Position numbers and translations under genes: made by a program. Positions 48,148 through 55,059 of a stretch of 64,000 nucleotides of DNA are shown in pieces; positions within the stretch are counted from its first letter, which is position 1; the number at the start of each line of letters is the position of its first letter. This DNA is from Escherichia coli 042 (GTDB taxonomy: Bacteria; Pseudomonadota; Gammaproteobacteria; Enterobacterales; Enterobacteriaceae), in the NCBI RefSeq assembly GCF_000027125.1, contig NC_017626.1; one strand, written 5' to 3'. The notes under the pieces were generated by a model. That model had not been told where the DNA came from, searched no databases, and saw nothing but the letters and a program-made list of their open reading frames with translations.

Positions 48148-48223
48148 GCCGATATAGCTCAGTTGGTAGAGCAGCGCATTCGTAATGCGAAGGTCGTAGG
48201 TTCGACTCCTATTATCGGCACCA
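48148..48223 (+). tRNA. thrW: tRNA-Thr (anticodon CGT)
   Basis: GCCGATATAGCTCAGTTGGTAGAGCAGCGCATTCGTAATGCGAAGGTCGTAGGTTCGACTCCTATTATCGGCACCA; cloverleaf with CGT anticodon and 3' CCA. Confidence 0.95.
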
Positions 48224-49059: not shown

Positions 49060-49260
49060 GCAACCTCCGATAAGTGGGTGTTCAAGCCACCACCGGAGAG
49101 GCTAATCTCGCGGGTGGTGGAACCGGGCAGGGTTAGCCTTACCAGCCTTATCGGACACTGGCGCGTCTTGCGACGCCCCCGCCCGGCCCACCATTGAGAT
49201 GTAACCGTGCGAACAACACAAAAAAAGACGCTGGCGCGTCATGTGTCGCCGATAAGATTT
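49060..49260. repeat. Cluster of degenerate REP-like palindromic units and hairpins
   Basis: GACACTGGCGCGTCTTGCGACGCC (49155-49178) and GACGCTGGCGCGTCATGTGTCGCC (49227-49250); CCGATAAG/CTTATCGG three times; 8-bp inverted repeat CCACCACC/GGTGGTGG (49087-49094/49113-49120); minus-strand GACGC-loop-GCGTC hairpin followed by T7 (49221-49241). Confidence 0.65.
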
Positions 49261-49402
49261 CTTCAGGAGGCTAATCCCGACGCCTGATTTTGCAGGCGCG
49301 GGAGAAAGATACTGCGATTGGTCATGAGTGGCAAGGGCTACATCATGTTTACCGACATCTCACGCAAAAATACCCTGATTATTAATAGCGAAAATCAGTT
49401 TC

Positions 49403-52400
49403 TTATTTTGGCGGTAGCTTTTTGCGGTTCTTTGCCAACTGGAATCCTTCAGGTAACGGTTTGAATTTATCGCCGCCTTTAGGCCAGCGTTTTGCCCTGC
49501 TCTGAAATGCCCTTAACGAGTCGATATCCAGCGTTGCAGCGACCACAAAGTCATTATCACCGCCCTTCACACGAGCAATATCACGCATAAAGGGTTCTTT
49601 TGCCGGGGAACGTACGCGACTATCGCCGTATTTTCGGTTATTCACTAAAATAGTATAGGCATGAATATCCAGCGCTGCTGATTCAATCAACGATGCAAAC
49701 GTATCTAGATCTTTATTCCAGCTCAATACCATTAATGCATCGAGTGCGCCCTGAAAACGGATCCTCGCTTTACTATTCTGGAGTTCAGAGCAAATCATAA
49801 CGCCAAAATTGACGCCGTGATGAATATATACCGGCTTACGTTGTTTAACATTAAGTGTCGAATCCCAAGACTTACCATAAGTTGAAAATAATGCCTCATC
49901 TTCACCTACGGCGGGTTCCAGCTTGGGTTGCCATATTTTGACACTCGCTGGATAGCCGAGTCTGTTATCTGAAAGGACAAGTACGGCCTCACTCTTCAGT
50001 TGATTATCGTCTAAGTGGCGGTATTCTGTTCCCGCAATTAGACTGATACCCGCCGAACTCAAACGATCAGCAATACTGTTAACCCAGCGTAACGGGATTG
50101 AAAGCTCAGGGAATAAAACATAATCAGGTTTAGGAGATAGTTTCAATGTTGCATTAACCAGTTCAGAAATCCGCTGGTACCTTGAACGGGACAAGTTAGA
50201 TTTATTGCAGGCCATTTTAGCCCAGTCGTCCTCCTCTGTTTTAATGCTGGTTAGCGCAACGACAACTTTATGTTTCCTGTCTGTGCCAATATGAATGAAT
50301 TTCTTAGGCCGAGCTTTTTTTGTCGCTTCATCTGAGTCCTGCTCCGATGCTAGCAACGTCGGTTTGATCCATACTCCGCGTAATGCTTGAGTATATTTTG
50401 CCCAAATGGTGGACGGTCTCTCATCTGGTTTTTTGTCGGATGTGGAGGGTAATCCAACACATTCGGGGGCCAGTTCTGATATTTCAGCGGGTGTTAAAGG
50501 ACGTGTAGGGAAAATGTAAGGTAGGTAACTTTCGTTCTTACGATTTCCTTTAGCCACTTTTTCCAGTCGGGTATTCTTGGTTGATTTCAAAAATAGCTTA
50601 ATAACGTCAATATCAATAAGCGATGAGTCGCTCATTAATTTCAGTATTTTAACTTCTTTTTTACTATCACGCTGATTAACAAGTTTTTCTGCCGACTGAC
50701 TCTTTACGATCTGTTTATAAGGTTCCTTTGCTAAATCAGCTCGAGCTACCAATGGCGCTTTTAAATAAAAATCTGCTGAATCAAAGCGAAGATCCAGTAA
50801 ATCCTTTAGATTCGTCAGACTTTGTGAAATATGATTAAAAAATGTATCCGCAAGGCACTCTTCTTTCTTTGAACGTTTATCAAGAAATAATCTGTCAGGA
50901 CTGTAATATCGTGTCGCTGCATCAACAAATAGCCAGCTTAATGTGCCTTTTATACAGCGCCAAAGATCATTTACTGCTCGAGTTTTGCAACCATTTATAT
51001 TCACTTCCTTACCTGAAGTAATCACCGATGCCAACAGGTTGATGGATTCGTAAGCTTTAAGTACAATTTTTTCCGCGTGCTGCCATTCATTCATACTGAT
51101 AGCAAAGCCAAGCAGCCTTGGCAGATAACTAAAATGTGCAAATAGATTATCAGCCCTAAGAATATGGTTGTAGGCAAACTGATAAAACTCTTCCCGCTGT
51201 TCTTTCCATTCACTTGGAGGCAGATCTCGTGCCAGTGTTTCAACGTAGCGTAATTGCAGTGACCAGCCCAAACGACGAATGGTTAATCCATCCGCACGGC
51301 GCAGAGTATCGGCATTTTCACCTACACTACCGGCAGCGGAAAGGACTTTAGCTGCGGTGGAGTGTTCCAGTTGATCCGGTGAAGGCATCAAGCGGTGTTC
51401 ACTAGAAAGCTCGTAGATCTCCTTTTCGATACTGTCGAGCAGGTCTATTCCAGCCCTCCCTTGAAGCACGAAAAGTTTTTGCTTATCGGATTGTAACTGG
51501 ATGGTGGTCTTACCCTGGAAATGCTCGCCCTGCTGTATTTGCCATATTTGTTTTTGCTCGTTTTTCAAATAAACGCAATCATTGCCAAGCCTATCTTGCA
51601 GCAATAACATAAATTCGTGATTATTAGTAATTGTCCCTGTATCGCGTATTACAAGGAACATATCATCGACATAACGACCGTAGTGAATTGGTGATAGTTT
51701 TTCAATGACTAATTTATCCCAATGGTGTAGCAATATATTTGAAATGATCCGACTGGCTGTTAATCCAATGACCAGACCACCATTAATAACAGGTGTTTTG
51801 TACGCTATTTTCTTTCCAAATGCCGCTGCGCCGTCAGACCAGTGCTTTAAGAATACTGCTAACTGTGCAGTAAACGCTTTTTCATCCTCAGTCAGTTTTA
51901 TGTTTAGTGTGTTATAGAGATCATCAGAGGTTATAGCCAGTGGATCAATAAAATGATAGTAACTTTTTAAATCCAGTGAGGCGGCGATAATGTCACGATC
52001 TTTTTCCAACTCGTCACGTATAGCTTTTAAGCCATCACCACGCCATTTTTGGTAGGGCTGGAAGTAGGGGCTAAAAGAACCCACGGCACTGATATGGAAT
52101 GGATTATCCTGCTCATTGCTAAATAATTCATCATTACGAATACGCTTTAGCCGCGCGCCATAGCAACAGTTATCTAAGCTGGCATCAAATTTATGCCCGA
52201 CCATGTTAATCCATAGTGCAGAGATAATGTGACTATCAACCGGGAAGTCACCAATAATACGAAACTCTGGTATCAGATCAAAATTATTAAATAAATGGTC
52301 GGCTGCTCGTTTAGGATTAGAAAAGTGGACGTGTCCATTTTGGGATTCATGTTTTTTCTTTGTGGTTAATTTTTTCGGTAACAAACGAAATTTGCCAATC

Positions 52401-52612
52401 AACTTCTTATTGCTACTGAATCCATCTTCGCTCTGCAAAAGATCTAAGAGTTTTTGCAGGTTTTCAAGTAATTCCTGCTCATACTCGGCAAATTTGATAG
52501 CAACAGGAAATGTATTCTCAAAGAAGCTATCGGCTTTTGCTTTCCGGTAAGCGACCAGAAGGTCTTCAATCGTCAGATCATCCCAGCCAGTGAAAATTGC
52601 CTGATATGTCAT
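49403..52612 (-). CDS. Reverse transcriptase fused to a C-terminal nitrilase-family domain (DRT type 1-like)
   Basis: 1069-aa ORF; RT motif A-like LDLKSYYHFI, motif C YGRYVDDMFLV; C-terminal nitrilase-like Glu in YVLFPELSIP and Cys in GVMICSE. Confidence 0.8.
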   Translation of the reverse strand: MTYQAIFTGWDDLTIEDLLVAYRKAKADSFFENTFPVAIKFAEYEQELLENLQKLLDLLQSEDGFSSNKKLIGKFRLLPKKLTTKKKHESQNGHVHFSNPKRAADHLFNNFDLIPEFRIIGDFPVDSHIISALWINMVGHKFDASLDNCCYGARLKRIRNDELFSNEQDNPFHISAVGSFSPYFQPYQKWRGDGLKAIRDELEKDRDIIAASLDLKSYYHFIDPLAITSDDLYNTLNIKLTEDEKAFTAQLAVFLKHWSDGAAAFGKKIAYKTPVINGGLVIGLTASRIISNILLHHWDKLVIEKLSPIHYGRYVDDMFLVIRDTGTITNNHEFMLLLQDRLGNDCVYLKNEQKQIWQIQQGEHFQGKTTIQLQSDKQKLFVLQGRAGIDLLDSIEKEIYELSSEHRLMPSPDQLEHSTAAKVLSAAGSVGENADTLRRADGLTIRRLGWSLQLRYVETLARDLPPSEWKEQREEFYQFAYNHILRADNLFAHFSYLPRLLGFAISMNEWQHAEKIVLKAYESINLLASVITSGKEVNINGCKTRAVNDLWRCIKGTLSWLFVDAATRYYSPDRLFLDKRSKKEECLADTFFNHISQSLTNLKDLLDLRFDSADFYLKAPLVARADLAKEPYKQIVKSQSAEKLVNQRDSKKEVKILKLMSDSSLIDIDVIKLFLKSTKNTRLEKVAKGNRKNESYLPYIFPTRPLTPAEISELAPECVGLPSTSDKKPDERPSTIWAKYTQALRGVWIKPTLLASEQDSDEATKKARPKKFIHIGTDRKHKVVVALTSIKTEEDDWAKMACNKSNLSRSRYQRISELVNATLKLSPKPDYVLFPELSIPLRWVNSIADRLSSAGISLIAGTEYRHLDDNQLKSEAVLVLSDNRLGYPASVKIWQPKLEPAVGEDEALFSTYGKSWDSTLNVKQRKPVYIHHGVNFGVMICSELQNSKARIRFQGALDALMVLSWNKDLDTFASLIESAALDIHAYTILVNNRKYGDSRVRSPAKEPFMRDIARVKGGDNDFVVAATLDIDSLRAFQSRAKRWPKGGDKFKPLPEGFQLAKNRKKLPPK

Positions 52613-52906
52613 GCGTTATCGTCCTTAGATTACAGTCTGTACAGAATTAGCCAGCCGTTTCATGCCCGAAGGGGGGCTCTTGACACCAGTAATCCATCAG
52701 TGAGGCTGGCAATAATTTTGATTTGTATCCATGTTACACGCTCCCCGCAACCAGTCCGAGCATATATTTGTCACATTTTTCCCGAAAGTGATTAAGTTTG
52801 AATTTTTTGTTTAATGTCGATTTTTAGTCGACAAAATGAGGAATAAGTAAACTATTTCTTGCTGTGGCGTATCCCTGAATCTACACTGGTTTAAATATTT
52901 GTACTA

Positions 52907-53710
52907 ATGTCTATTCAGAGGCGACAGTTGCCAAACTATCTAAACTGGCTGATGCAGCACACGCTACCCGGCCAGGTGCTGCTCCAGTCATGGCTTACCC
53001 GCAACGGCATAGATCGTAAGCTCTCTTATCTCTATGTGAAGAATGGCTGGCTCAGGCGGATCGCTCACGGCGTATACTGCCGGACGGGCCGTGAGCCGGA
53101 TTGGGTAGACGCGGTTTACTGCCTTCAAACACAGTGGGAAAAGCCTGTTCGGGTGGCGGGGCTAACCAGCCTTGCGCTTCAGGGCCATGCGCACTATACC
53201 GAACCGGGTAAGCCGCAGGTCTGGCTCGCGCTTCCGGCTTACGTTAAGCTGCCGGGATGGTTTGCTGCCTTCGAACAATCTGCAACATTTATCACGCTGT
53301 ATACATCGGGGCTTACCGTAGATGTAACGTCATTGACTACGGAACTGAAAATTGGCGACCGCCAGTTAGCAGGCAGTGCCCCGGAACTGGCCGCGTATGA
53401 GATCGCCTGCGGCGTTCCTTCGTTGATATCGTTCGAACATGCCGATGCTCTGTTTCAGGGGATGAATCTTCTCAGCCCGCGTAAATTGCAGGCGTTACTC
53501 TGCGCCAGTCATTCGGTTAAAACCAACCGGGTGATGCTTTACCTTGCCCGGCGTAATGGACACCCTTATTTTCAGTATCTTGATCAAAGCGGTATAGAAA
53601 CAGGTACGGGAAAGCGGCAAATCATACCTGGTGGCTGGCTGGAGCCGGATTATCAAATTACTGTTCCACGCGAATTTAAACCGGAAGGAGTCGAAGATGG
53701 ATCTGCGTGA
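52907..53710 (+). CDS. AbiEi-like antitoxin/transcriptional regulator
   Basis: 267-aa ORF immediately upstream of, and overlapping by 14 bp, a DUF1814-type nucleotidyltransferase gene; assigned mainly by that pairing. Confidence 0.6.
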   Translation: MSIQRRQLPNYLNWLMQHTLPGQVLLQSWLTRNGIDRKLSYLYVKNGWLRRIAHGVYCRTGREPDWVDAVYCLQTQWEKPVRVAGLTSLALQGHAHYTEPGKPQVWLALPAYVKLPGWFAAFEQSATFITLYTSGLTVDVTSLTTELKIGDRQLAGSAPELAAYEIACGVPSLISFEHADALFQGMNLLSPRKLQALLCASHSVKTNRVMLYLARRNGHPYFQYLDQSGIETGTGKRQIIPGGWLEPDYQITVPREFKPEGVEDGSA

Positions 53711-54617
53711 TAGCTATACCCGGCAGGTCAAACTGTTGATGGACGCTCTGCCGCATGTGGCGAAGGAGTCCGGTTTCGCATTAAAAGGCGGCACCGCAAT
53801 CAATTTGTTTGTGCAGGATTTTCCCCGTCTGTCGGTGGATATCGATCTGGCGTATAAGACTTTTGCGGATCGCGATACCGATTTGACGGCGATCAACGAC
53901 GCTTTGAAGAGAATTACTGCATCGCTGAACAGTAAACCGGGGATTACCGCGATTCGGCAGGAAAATAAAACGGATGAAAAGCGCATCATTGTGAATACGG
54001 CTGATGCCCAGATTAAGATCGAGGTTAGTCCGGTCTGGCGTGGGCTATTGTTGCCTCCGGCAGAAATGTCGGTGTGCGAACGTGTGGAAATGGAGTATGG
54101 CTTCACCACTATGAGTGTCGTTTCGCTGGCGGATCTTTATGGCGGTAAAATCTGCGCAGCGCTTGATCGTCAGCACCCGCGCGATCTGTTTGATGTGCTG
54201 AATATGCTGGAGAAACCGGGACTGATGCGGGAGATCTTTGACGGTTTTCTTTGTTATCTGGCAGGCCATCCCCGCCCCATTGCCGAGTTGCTGGCTCCAA
54301 ACTGGGATACAGAGCGGATCACGACGCTGTATGCTCAGGAATTTTCGGGGATGACTCAGCAGGAAACGTCGCTGGAATCGCTGCTGTCAGTAACGACTTT
54401 GCTGCCGCAGGCGTTGAAGTCACATCTTACGGATCTGGATCGCGAGTTCTTGCTCAGTTTTAAGCAAAACAGCCCTGACTGGTCGCGGTATCGCTATCCT
54501 GAAATTCAGCATCTTCCGGCTATTCGCTGGAAGCAACGTAATCTGGCGGTGCTGAAAGATAAAAATCCGGCGAAGTATGTGGCGGCGGTGAATAAGCTAG
54601 AGAGGGTGCTGGCGTAA
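53697..54617 (+). CDS. AbiEii-like nucleotidyltransferase toxin (DUF1814)
   Basis: 306 aa from ATG 53697 (MDLRDSYTRQ); nucleotidyltransferase signature FALKGGTAINLF...RLSVDIDLAY. Confidence 0.75.
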   Translation: MDLRDSYTRQVKLLMDALPHVAKESGFALKGGTAINLFVQDFPRLSVDIDLAYKTFADRDTDLTAINDALKRITASLNSKPGITAIRQENKTDEKRIIVNTADAQIKIEVSPVWRGLLLPPAEMSVCERVEMEYGFTTMSVVSLADLYGGKICAALDRQHPRDLFDVLNMLEKPGLMREIFDGFLCYLAGHPRPIAELLAPNWDTERITTLYAQEFSGMTQQETSLESLLSVTTLLPQALKSHLTDLDREFLLSFKQNSPDWSRYRYPEIQHLPAIRWKQRNLAVLKDKNPAKYVAAVNKLERVLA

Positions 54618-55059
54618 TCAATAGACCAGCATTAATCACAGAAGATTACCAATCAGACAGAAATGGTTAAATCGTCGAATTCATAATTAATACTTTTTCT
54701 TACGCCGCTGAACAGCTTGAAAAGGATACATATTTTAAATATCAGTGAAGTGAACAGTTTATTGCCGTTATTAATAGAGATGGAGGAATAAATACGCGTA
54801 TTCTACTATTGCAACAAAAAAAACGATGATGATCAGTTTTCATAATGAAGTAACCTGACAGATATAAAAATGTTGATTGAGGCTCAATGCCCGAATGAAG
54901 GTTGTCGAGGGAGCCAGGTGGTTTTTTCTTTTGGGTGATCTCCATTGCTGGATAGTCCCCTCTTTCTCGCTCAAAGCAGGGTGTACAGACCCTGGAATTG
55001 AACGCAGAGGGACTACCTGACACAATTTTGCACAGTGAAGAGTCGGTCGTTATTAACGT

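Follow-up and report, generated by a model that had tools for sequence, protein, structure and literature searches.

In the window, a stretch of 64,000 nucleotides from Escherichia coli 042, two overlapping genes lie beside a reverse transcriptase (RT) gene and diverge from it. A sequence-only reading had taken them for an AbiEi/AbiEii abortive-infection pair, and a palindrome upstream of them for a possible AbiEi operator. We asked whether the two genes form such a pair, whether the palindrome could control it, and whether the RT gene has any part in it. Judged from its sequence, abiEi-abiEii is a standard, previously annotated E. coli AbiE toxin-antitoxin (abortive-infection) pair, and both exact proteins are present in NCBI, already named AbiEi and AbiEii. 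It is one of the common AbiE systems of E. coli; RefSeq already names it, and PADLOC or DefenseFinder would detect it. Its significance beyond correct annotation is little.

Organization and distribution of the gene pair

Both genes lie on one strand, the antitoxin gene preceding the toxin gene, which is the bicistronic arrangement of AbiE (Table 1). This order, with the toxin gene directly 3', was found in about 68 of 74 related loci from Gammaproteobacteria and beyond. The 14-bp overlap reported earlier was recovered at positions 53697 to 53710, the last being the end of abiEi, and an identical overlap was present in all close homologous loci. Given this overlap and the AAGGAG sequence within abiEi, we propose that the translation of the two genes is coupled.

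The divergent gap of 294 bp was also correct as measured from the end of the RT start codon (52612) to an ATG at 52907. The start codon of abiEi, however, is most likely not this ATG (267 amino acids) but the TTG at 52928 (260 amino acids). Homologues of AbiEi are 257 to 260 amino acids long, and their alignment begins at the TTG codon. An AGAGG Shine-Dalgarno sequence (52917 to 52921) is found 6 nucleotides 5' of the TTG, the longer frame is not open in two homologous loci (L005 and L012), which have an in-frame TGA, and the RefSeq annotation corresponds to the 260-residue form.

Table 1. Coordinates in the window of the abiE genes and of the predicted elements around them
Feature	Position	Strand	Description
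Distal unit, GTTTG	52796..52800	+	Counterpart of the proximal GTTTA box
O1, distal dyad TGTCGA-N7-TCGACA	52815..52833		Predicted AbiEi operator, upstream of the -35 element
Predicted abiE promoter	52859..52887	+	-35 TTGCTG (52859-52864), 17-nt spacer, -10 TACACT (52882-52887)
Proximal GTTTA box	52889..52893	+	39 nt before the start codon, just after the -10 element
O2, proximal dyad TGTCTA-N7-GCGACA	52908..52926		Overlaps the Shine-Dalgarno sequence AGAGG; ends 2 nt before the TTG
abiEi	52928..53710	+	Predicted antitoxin/autorepressor, 260 aa from the TTG (Pfam, PADLOC, homologue alignment, AF2 model)
abiEii Shine-Dalgarno AAGGAG	53685..53690	+	Within the 3' end of abiEi, 6 nt from the ATG; read from the sequence
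abiEii	53697..54617	+	Predicted DUF1814 nucleotidyltransferase toxin, 306 aa, ATG start (Pfam, PADLOC, motifs, AF2 model)

Of 5426 complete E. coli genomes, 832 carried the pair. Purifying selection acts on both genes, with dN/dS values of 0.07 to 0.17 (abiEi, 0.07 to 0.16; abiEii, 0.07 to 0.17). A cluster of SNPs (5%) in abiEii was considered as an oddity of the window and rejected, since the exact protein is in NCBI and the dN/dS is about 0.12; it is an ordinary recombinant allele. A search of the phage collection gave no match to the module, and the plasmid collection gave a single full-length match, the 64-kb record of E. coli MS 69-1, whose own chromosome carries a copy of equal identity. 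The module is therefore essentially chromosomal. A generic promoter/terminator scan found no terminator after abiEii.

Domains, motifs, and predicted folds

Profile searches found an AbiEi-type domain in the first protein. AbiEi matched the Pfam families AbiEi_3_N (4.5e-29) and AbiEi_3 (5.7e-35) and, nearly end to end, the PADLOC AbiEi profile PDLC02227 (1.6e-79). The sequence-only reading had expected an AbiEi_4/COG5340 protein. The first half of this expectation did not hold, AbiEi_4 being only a weak match (E value of 0.0046), but the second did, because AbiEi_3 corresponds to DUF2893, a family that Dy et al. (2014) place in COG5340 and report upstream of COG2253 toxin genes. The AF2 model of AbiEi (pLDDT of 91.4) contains a winged helix of the order H-S-H-H-S-S at residues 4 to 52, and its best PDB matches were Rv2827c (1ZEL; E value of 6e-9) and the AbiEi of Streptococcus agalactiae (6Y8Q; E value of 2e-6). 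[quoted passage not shown]

The assignment of the second protein to AbiEii/DUF1814 was confirmed by Pfam (PF08843, COG2253; 8.8e-35, residues 14 to 221) and by PADLOC (AbiEii PDLC02290; 7.9e-116, residues 5 to 305 of 306). The two signatures noticed earlier, GGTAINLF and SVDIDL, are present at residues 31 to 38 and 46 to 51. Dy et al. (2014) defined the nucleotidyltransferase (NTase) motifs as hG[G/S]x15DhD with a motif II Arg, KLxAaxxR (motif III), and +DxxD (motif IV). All four are intact in AbiEii, including the x15 spacing and the motif II Arg, as G31G32-x15-D48ID50, R44, K151-ICAALD-R158, and R162DLFD166; these residues, with S46, were invariant in 20 homologues. S46 lies two residues before the first Asp of DxD, the position of T65 in the S. 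agalactiae AbiEii and of S78 in MenT3, and the equivalent residue has been singled out in the Serratia toxin AbiE-T2 (Hampton et al. 2020, PMC7725324). The AF2 model of AbiEii (pLDDT of 90.7) had MenT4 as its top Foldseek match in the PDB (6Y56; probability of 1.00, E value of 6e-7, TM scores of 0.61/0.63), and AbiEii is predicted to have the DNA polymerase beta-like NTase fold of the MenT/AbiEii toxins.

Searches of the PDB by sequence and by profile found no relative of either protein, which places this subclass far from the structurally studied members; the link to MenT4, Rv2827c, and the S. agalactiae AbiEi came only from the comparison of predicted structures. No NCBIfam model matched AbiEi or AbiEii. 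We are highly confident that the pair, with the mechanism proposed below, constitutes a self-contained AbiE toxin-antitoxin/abortive-infection module of the AbiEi_3 (DUF2893) subclass.

Two conserved dyads flank the predicted abiE promoter

The palindrome noticed in the divergent region, here O1, occurs nowhere else in the 64-kb window (0.01 expected). O1 was kept at exactly -113 from the abiEi start codon across nine genera (loci L004 to L009 and L012; L010 and L011 have a single mismatch). The arms were conserved while the 7-nt spacer and the flanks varied, with gene dS values of up to about 1 and synonymous sites near saturation. In E. coli 4/1-1, O1 has decayed to TGTCGA-N7-TGGACG, and Mixta (L003) lacks it; O1 is therefore dispensable in some lineages. 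A second, related dyad, O2, lies 93 bp downstream within the second copy of a 38-nt direct repeat and was conserved in 10 of 10 close loci, although the Shine-Dalgarno and start signals could account for part of this conservation. A relaxed form of the dyad pattern gave 3 matches in 64 kb, all of them in this region, against 0.12 expected.

The generic scan missed the abiE promoter, which has 7 of 12 consensus positions and was recovered only from the alignment. There, the conserved positions were TTG in the -35 element and A2 and T6 in the -10 element, at a fixed spacing of 17 nucleotides, and L011 has TTGTGA-17-TATAAT. The two conserved dyads flank this conserved predicted promoter. Further downstream, 61 of 64 loci of the AbiEi_3 type have GTTT[AG] beginning precisely at -39, and an alignment of 30 leaders needed no gaps and showed GTTT in every sequence. 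The consensus of 19 units is GTTTAaataTTt-n3-aaaaTGTCnAttnanAggCGACA. Across these 30 diverse loci, the symmetry of the dyad about position 52917 was held by compensating changes (75% complementary, against 36 to 46% when the center was slid), and related dyads with altered yet symmetric half-sites occur at equal register in distant clades.

Could the palindrome be an accident? Its mere existence carries little weight: perfect inverted repeats with 6-nt arms and a spacer of up to 12 nt are at chance level in the 315-bp AT-rich region (1 observed, 1.09 in shuffles), and, this region being common to the RT gene and abiE, the palindrome might also be part of the RT promoter. What appears to give it significance is its conservation and the second copy. 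Because O1 keeps its register in genera with a non-RT left neighbor, and because related dyads recur both 93 bp away and, with changed half-sites, in distant clades, we regard chance or an RT promoter element as very improbable. A leader that is gap-free, co-varies at symmetric positions, and contains the Shine-Dalgarno sequence within O2 might also be read as an RNA element, such as a hairpin controlling translation. RNAalifold found no consensus structure in the leader (0 kcal/mol, 0 pairs), and this reading was dropped. The stem in the window would have only 4 bp with an 11-nt loop, the GTTT-dyad unit is repeated upstream of the predicted -35 element, where transcription would not reach, and AbiEi carries a predicted winged-helix DNA-binding domain; an RNA element is thus quite improbable. 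No Rfam family matched in the intergenic region. The earlier suggestion of an AbiEi operator is, in contrast, backed by phylogenetic footprinting as a predicted site, and the palindrome is very probably one of two AbiEi binding sites, with O2 the other.

The small addition made here is that genes of the AbiEi_3 type share a rigid, gap-free leader in which a GTTT box at -39 is followed by a co-varying dyad; the literature searched described no operator for this subclass. We tentatively suggest that antitoxins of this class use a rigid control unit consisting of a GTTTA box, 15 nucleotides, and a dyad centered 11 nucleotides 5' of the start codon, with a second copy often lying further upstream. 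A single repressor would then occupy the transcription-start region together with the ribosome-binding site and the start codon and, given a distal copy, could loop the promoter. The half-sites would have changed with the antitoxin (TGTC-N11-GACA here, ACACC-N3-GGTGT elsewhere), insulating co-resident AbiE systems from one another. The two dyads, the fixed-length leader, and the co-varying half-sites provide a basis for DNA-binding tests of the AbiEi_3 subclass.

The neighboring RT gene and the role of the pair

The sequence-only reading had placed the pair beside the RT gene, which is correct as to position; a functional link was unsupported. The window, 260 E. coli genomes, and L011 (RT 81% identical) all have RT and abiE side by side in divergent orientation, and a UG5-large RT of Sinorhizobium meliloti RMO17 also adjoins an AbiEii-type module, as would be expected if RT-nitrilase, AbiEi, and AbiEii were a three-gene defense system controlled jointly from the divergent region. 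This reading was examined from both the AbiE and the RT sides and rejected, and we consider it exceedingly improbable, its distribution having already largely refuted it. No RT was found within 6 kb in 73 of 74 AbiEi_3-type loci, and a co-occurrence of 1 in 74 does not identify AbiE as accessory genes of UG5/DRT systems. Of the 832 pair-bearing E. coli genomes, 260 had a detectable RT gene and about 570 gave no match to it in a DNA search; in E. coli 4/1-1, a type I restriction system, hsdRMS, takes the place of RT. Five RT homologues from other genera (72 to 76% identity) all had no AbiEii gene nearby, and four of them end a type I restriction-modification (R-M) operon. A preprint on S. meliloti treats UG5-large as an antiviral module by itself and lists the adjacent AbiEii-type module as a different system. 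O1 and O2, moreover, are unchanged in position in loci without RT. The distribution thus indicates that the RT (UG5 RT-nitrilase) is only a neighbor of abiE, and it should be analyzed without assuming AbiE membership. A type I R-M system as a general partner was rejected as well, the 74 loci containing only a 109-amino-acid hsdR remnant (L004) and weak matches. A different question is whether the pair is mainly an addiction module that stabilizes the thrW-linked island and an exchangeable defense cassette, instead of an abortive-infection system triggered by phage. The explanation preferred here overlaps with this one, the biological role being the only difference. The pair is the constant element beside a slot that holds RT (260 genomes) or type I R-M (strain 4/1-1), the left flank (tRNA-Thr, an integrase remnant, and ash) being alike in both versions. 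AbiE is reported to stabilize an integrative and conjugative element (ICE) in Streptococcus suis (PMC11062541), and AbiEi_3 antitoxin genes were essential in Tn-seq in two Pectobacterium strains carrying the toxin. In E. coli, the S. agalactiae AbiE did not protect against 32 coliphages tested, so a defense role cannot be assumed. On the other side, the L. lactis AbiE and the related DUF1814 systems SanaTA and RlegTA show phage phenotypes, and the island is already decayed (integrase remnants), leaving little mobility to stabilize. We regard a mainly addictive role as possible but rather unlikely. The defense-rich site, with a UG5 RT or type I R-M adjoining, is only suggestive of phage protection by abiE.

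Proposed mechanism

For the abiE module, we infer toxicity, a tRNA target, phosphorylation, DNA binding, and phage defense by analogy with characterized systems. Toxicity and its neutralization have indirect support in the tested Serratia homologue AbiE-2 (see below), in the essential AbiEi_3 antitoxin genes of the two Pectobacterium strains, and in the purifying selection on both genes. AbiEii, as a nucleotidyltransferase of the DNA polymerase beta fold, would most likely add nucleotides to tRNA 3' ends and so stop translation and growth, as proposed from the MenT toxins, the S. agalactiae AbiEii, and Serratia AbiE-T2. The C-terminal domain of AbiEi would neutralize AbiEii, most likely by binding to the toxin and inducing it to auto-phosphorylate at S46. 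Its N-terminal winged helix would repress the operon by binding O1, which lies 5' of the -35 element, and O2, which covers the ribosome-binding site, with the two proteins made by translation coupled through the overlap. The toxin may then be freed when phage infection, or loss of the module, lowers the antitoxin level or shifts the balance of phosphorylation.

Comparison with known systems

The closest system is AbiE-2 of Serratia sp. ATCC 39006 LacA (AbiE-A2/AbiE-T2; locus L016), which belongs to the same subclass, with an AbiEi_3 antitoxin and a DUF1814 toxin (Hampton et al. 2020, PMC7725324). Its antitoxin is 46% and its toxin 56% identical to the proteins described here. The gene order is alike and the genes overlap, by 8 bp instead of 14 bp, and both toxins contain RLSVDIDL, which includes S46. 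A GTTTA box at -39 and a dyad before the start codon are common to the two loci; however, the half-sites are of the AAACC-N3-GGTGA type in Serratia and TGTC-N11-GACA here, and Serratia has a single unit with a TTGACA -35 element where two units are found here. AbiE-T2 was toxic by 10^6-fold in E. coli, was rescued by its cognate antitoxin, and perturbed tRNAs (Hampton et al. 2020, PMC7725324). Toxicity and rescue are thus experimental results for Serratia AbiE-2, whereas the pair here is known from sequence.

In structure, the best matches of both predicted proteins were MenA4/MenT4 (Rv2827c/Rv2826c) of Mycobacterium tuberculosis, with sequence identities of only 14 to 18%, undetectable in an HMM search of the PDB. 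MenA4 (about 290 amino acids) is a two-domain wHTH protein similar in length to AbiEi. MenT4, like AbiEii, is a DUF1814 NTase, and it modifies tRNA 3' ends, as a 2026 preprint states. Rv2827c is reported to bind several inverted repeats in a negatively cooperative manner (PMC7319586).

The AbiEi-AbiEii systems of S. agalactiae and L. lactis (Dy et al. 2014; Arrowsmith et al. 2026, preprint) are, as here, bicistronic antitoxin-toxin operons, and their toxins share motifs I to IV with AbiEii. A Ser or Thr two residues before DxD is present in both; it is the phospho-acceptor in the S. agalactiae toxin, whose auto-phosphorylation is induced by AbiEi (Arrowsmith et al. 2026, preprint). The wHTH antitoxin of S. 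agalactiae represses its own promoter through inverted repeats, and AbiEi likewise has a predicted wHTH. The antitoxins in these systems are, however, of the DUF4095/AbiEi_4 type and shorter (about 195 amino acids, against 260 for the AbiEi_3 protein here), and the fold match of the S. agalactiae AbiEi was weaker than that of Rv2827c, at 11% identity. The operator in S. agalactiae consists of two adjacent 23-bp repeats overlapping the -35 element of the promoter, whereas the predicted dyads here are separated, with one over the ribosome-binding site.

Identification of the AbiE pair

Two ORFs lie in this region, both on one strand (see the table). A sequence-only reading had taken them for an AbiEi/AbiEii-like pair and named AbiEi_4 as the family of the first. 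A profile search with the second, abiEii, matched Pfam AbiEii (8.8e-35), which bore out its AbiEii/DUF1814 identity. For the first, abiEi, the match to AbiEi_4 was weak (0.0046), and the AbiEi-type assignment held instead through AbiEi_3_N (4.5e-29) and AbiEi_3 (5.7e-35). AbiEi_3, the former DUF2893, is one of the COG5340 antitoxin families encoded upstream of COG2253/DUF1814 toxin genes (Dy et al. 2014). The PADLOC AbiE models covered both proteins nearly end to end (AbiEi, 1.6e-79; AbiEii, 7.9e-116).

The signature sequences GGTAINLF and SVDIDL were both found in AbiEii, which has all the motifs defined by Dy et al. 2014: G31G32, followed after exactly 15 residues by D48-I-D50; motif III, K151...R158; and motif IV, R162-DLF-D166. 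R44 lies four residues ahead of D48. Across 20 aligned homologues, with identity down to 53%, all these residues were invariant. S46 precedes the first aspartate by two residues; it is at the same position as the phospho-acceptor T65 of Streptococcus agalactiae AbiEii and S78 of MenT3, and is the residue pointed to in AbiE-T2 by the Serratia study (Hampton et al. 2020, PMC7725324). Neither sequence nor profile searches detected PDB relatives of either protein. The AlphaFold models were confident (pLDDT of 90.7 for AbiEii and 91.4 for AbiEi), and both predicted folds are those expected. The AbiEii model resembled MenT4 (6Y56; E 6e-7, TM about 0.6), and that of AbiEi resembled both Rv2827c, the antitoxin of MenT4 (1ZEL; E 6e-9), and S. 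agalactiae AbiEi (6Y8Q; E 2e-6).

Coordinates of features in and around the abiE locus
Feature	Position	Strand or arrangement	Basis or remark
tRNA (thrW tRNA-Thr)	48148-48220	+	Rfam
C4 antisense RNA	49110-49198	-	Rfam
isrK	49221-49299	-	Rfam
c4 a1b1 target	49260-49312	-	Rfam, just below gathering score
RT gene	49403-52612	-	divergent from abiEi
O1 (distal dyad, predicted operator), TGTCGA-N7-TCGACA	52815-52833	palindrome	unique in the 64-kb window
Predicted -35, TTGCTG	52859-52864	between dyads	alignment
Predicted -10, TACACT	52882-52887	17 nt after -35	alignment
O2 (proximal dyad, predicted operator), TGTCTA-N7-GCGACA	52908-52926	over Shine-Dalgarno	second copy of 38-nt unit
abiEi	52928-53710, probable TTG start	+	260-aa form
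Shine-Dalgarno of abiEii, AAGGAG	6 nt before ATG 53697	+	read from sequence
abiEii	ATG 53697 to stop 54617	+	ORF, 306 aa

The proposed 14-bp overlap of the genes was confirmed, as was the 294-bp distance from the RT (reverse-transcriptase) gene to ATG 52907. Of the span 52907-54617 first assigned to the pair, the end stood and the start probably did not. Because the alignment of the homologues (257 to 260 aa) begins at TTG 52928, an AGAGG Shine-Dalgarno lies 6 nt upstream of this codon, an in-frame TGA interrupts the longer frame in two related loci, and the 260-aa form is the RefSeq annotation in E. coli, abiEi most likely starts there.

Predicted operators and the leader

The palindrome O1 had been proposed as a possible AbiEi operator. 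Taken alone it has no significance, since one perfect inverted repeat with 6-nt arms in this 315-bp AT-rich region is the shuffle expectation. Nine related loci of other genera have O1 precisely at -113 relative to the start codon (seven perfect, two with one mismatch), and most of these loci lack the RT; the 7-nt spacer and flanks of O1 vary among them, and synonymous divergence of the genes is near saturation. O1 closes a 38-nt unit, and a second copy of this unit 93 bp downstream yields O2; a relaxed dyad pattern occurred in the 64 kb at these sites only (0.12 expected). A generic promoter scan missed the predicted abiE promoter, which was revealed by alignment, with TTG of the -35 and A2 and T6 of the -10 conserved. 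Given the fixed position, the repeated unit, and the conserved predicted promoter between the dyads, O1 is credible as a predicted operator.

In the AbiEi_3 subclass, 61 of 64 loci have GTTT[AG] with its first base exactly at -39 relative to the start codon, and 30 diverse leaders aligned without gaps. Leader positions mirrored about a centre 11 nt ahead of the start codon stay complementary by compensating changes: 75% of cells at such positions were complementary, versus 36 to 46% when slid, and none of 500 shuffles reached the 75%. Half-sites are clade specific (TGTC-N11-GACA here, ACACC-N3-GGTGT elsewhere). Such symmetry could also reflect RNA structure. RNAalifold found none in the leader, and the GTTT box and dyad unit is present upstream of the promoter too. 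The better reading of the predicted leader dyad is therefore a site on DNA for a winged-helix protein acting as a dimer. Two 'GTTTA box + dyad' units also lie upstream of the antitoxin gene in distantly related AbiEi_3-type loci of marine Gammaproteobacteria (L044, L049, L057, L054, and others), about 65 bp apart versus 93 bp in the window; in the enterobacterial clade of 45% identity there is a single unit, and the -35 is TTGACA.

Genomic context and relation to the RT

The C4 antisense RNA, isrK, and the c4 a1b1 target lie directly past the RT stop codon, and matching E. coli records contain an integrase remnant and an 'ash family' ORF. Taken together, these Rfam RNAs and ORFs suggest a P4/P1-type integrative element, now decayed, as the carrier of the defence genes. 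A box, ATGTTACACG, at 52731-52740 (196 to 197 nt upstream of the abiEi start) may mark the left edge of a conserved abiE module or an exchangeable-cassette junction. Its TATGTTACACG version is common to loci L011, L077, L004, and L005/L012, with differing left neighbours (L011, RT; L077, hsdR; L004, an hsdR remnant). Between abiEii and a LysR-family gene, where reference annotations place a ykgR remnant, the 9-bp stretch CAGGGTGTA (54977-54985) is missing from both compared E. coli strains.

The pair was correctly placed beside the RT gene; evidence from both the AbiE and the RT sides speaks against a functional link. PADLOC (PDLC03780) identifies the RT as a UG5-large RT-nitrilase. Among 74 loci encoding antitoxin relatives, the toxin gene is directly downstream in about 68 and the RT present in one (L011). 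E. coli genomes carry the pair three times as often as the RT, and in strain 4/1-1 a type I R-M system (hsdRMS, without RT) fills the RT slot between the same flanks. Conversely, no AbiE was found near the RT homologues (72 to 76% identity) at five loci in Citrobacter, Salmonella, Yersinia, Vibrio, and Alloalcanivorax, where a type I R-M operon ends with the homologue in four of the five. UG5-large likewise adjoins an AbiEii module in Sinorhizobium meliloti; we interpret this as an encounter between two frequent inhabitants of defence islands, and a single RT-AbiE system was rejected. The AbiE genes form an autonomous module beside an exchangeable defence cassette, within what looks like a decayed integrative element at tRNA-Thr.

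In Citrobacter, Salmonella, Yersinia, and Alloalcanivorax, the RT homologue is the last gene of an hsdR-hsdM-hsdS operon, separated from hsdS by genes for KwaA-like 184-aa and 277-aa proteins or a 706-aa AAA_13 protein. No such partner accompanies the RT in the window; since a membrane partner is reported to be required for UG5-large immunity in E. coli E101, this RT may be an orphan. It is intact at 51084-51087, where a 4-bp deletion in E. coli MEI003 (L001) splits the gene into two annotated ORFs.

Distribution and allelic variation

The pair was present in 832 of 5,426 complete E. coli genomes, annotated as 'type IV toxin-antitoxin system AbiEi family antitoxin' and 'nucleotidyl transferase AbiEii/AbiGii toxin family protein', and its exact protein sequences are already in NCBI under AbiEi/AbiEii names. 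It is an ordinary, already annotated AbiE feature, and the sequence-only reading was right; the present analysis adds only a corrected start for abiEi, the ruling out of an RT link, and an operator model that can be tested. Both genes are under purifying selection (dN/dS 0.07-0.17).

In its N-terminal half, the abiEii of the window diverges by about 5% from all complete E. coli genomes, with flanks identical to strain 7/2, and no complete E. coli genome of the collection reached at least 99% identity over the pair. This is an ordinary recombinant allele, reflecting allelic mosaicism via recombination within toxin-antitoxin genes. Clusters of about 5% nucleotide difference within abiEi and abiEii span 53579-54296 and, relative to strain 7/2, also 53089-53428; the RT gene and intergenic region are 100% identical to that strain. 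Against each of the four references, AbiEii has the same ten amino-acid changes within residues 8-125.

Proposed mechanism and comparison with known systems

As a whole, the following mechanism is the most likely. AbiEii would be a toxic tRNA-directed nucleotidyltransferase that blocks translation. By analogy with S. agalactiae AbiEii and MenT toxins, for which antitoxin-induced auto-phosphorylation has been shown, binding of AbiEi would lead AbiEii to auto-phosphorylate at S46. AbiEi would additionally repress the operon via O1 and O2. What the analysis established is the domain content, motifs, predicted folds, synteny, selection, and conservation of the cis elements; DNA binding, phosphorylation, toxicity and its target, and a possible phage phenotype are inferences.

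A literature search found no operator description for the AbiEi_3 subclass. S. agalactiae AbiEi represses its own promoter through inverted repeats, which the operators predicted here parallel with a different geometry. Antitoxin genes of the AbiEi_3 type are essential in two toxin-carrying Pectobacterium strains. AbiE-2 of Serratia sp. ATCC 39006 LacA (L016), of the same subclass, shares 46% (antitoxin) and 56% (toxin) identity with the window pair; its toxin lowers E. coli viability 10^6-fold, with rescue by the antitoxin, and tRNA levels are perturbed (PMC7725324).
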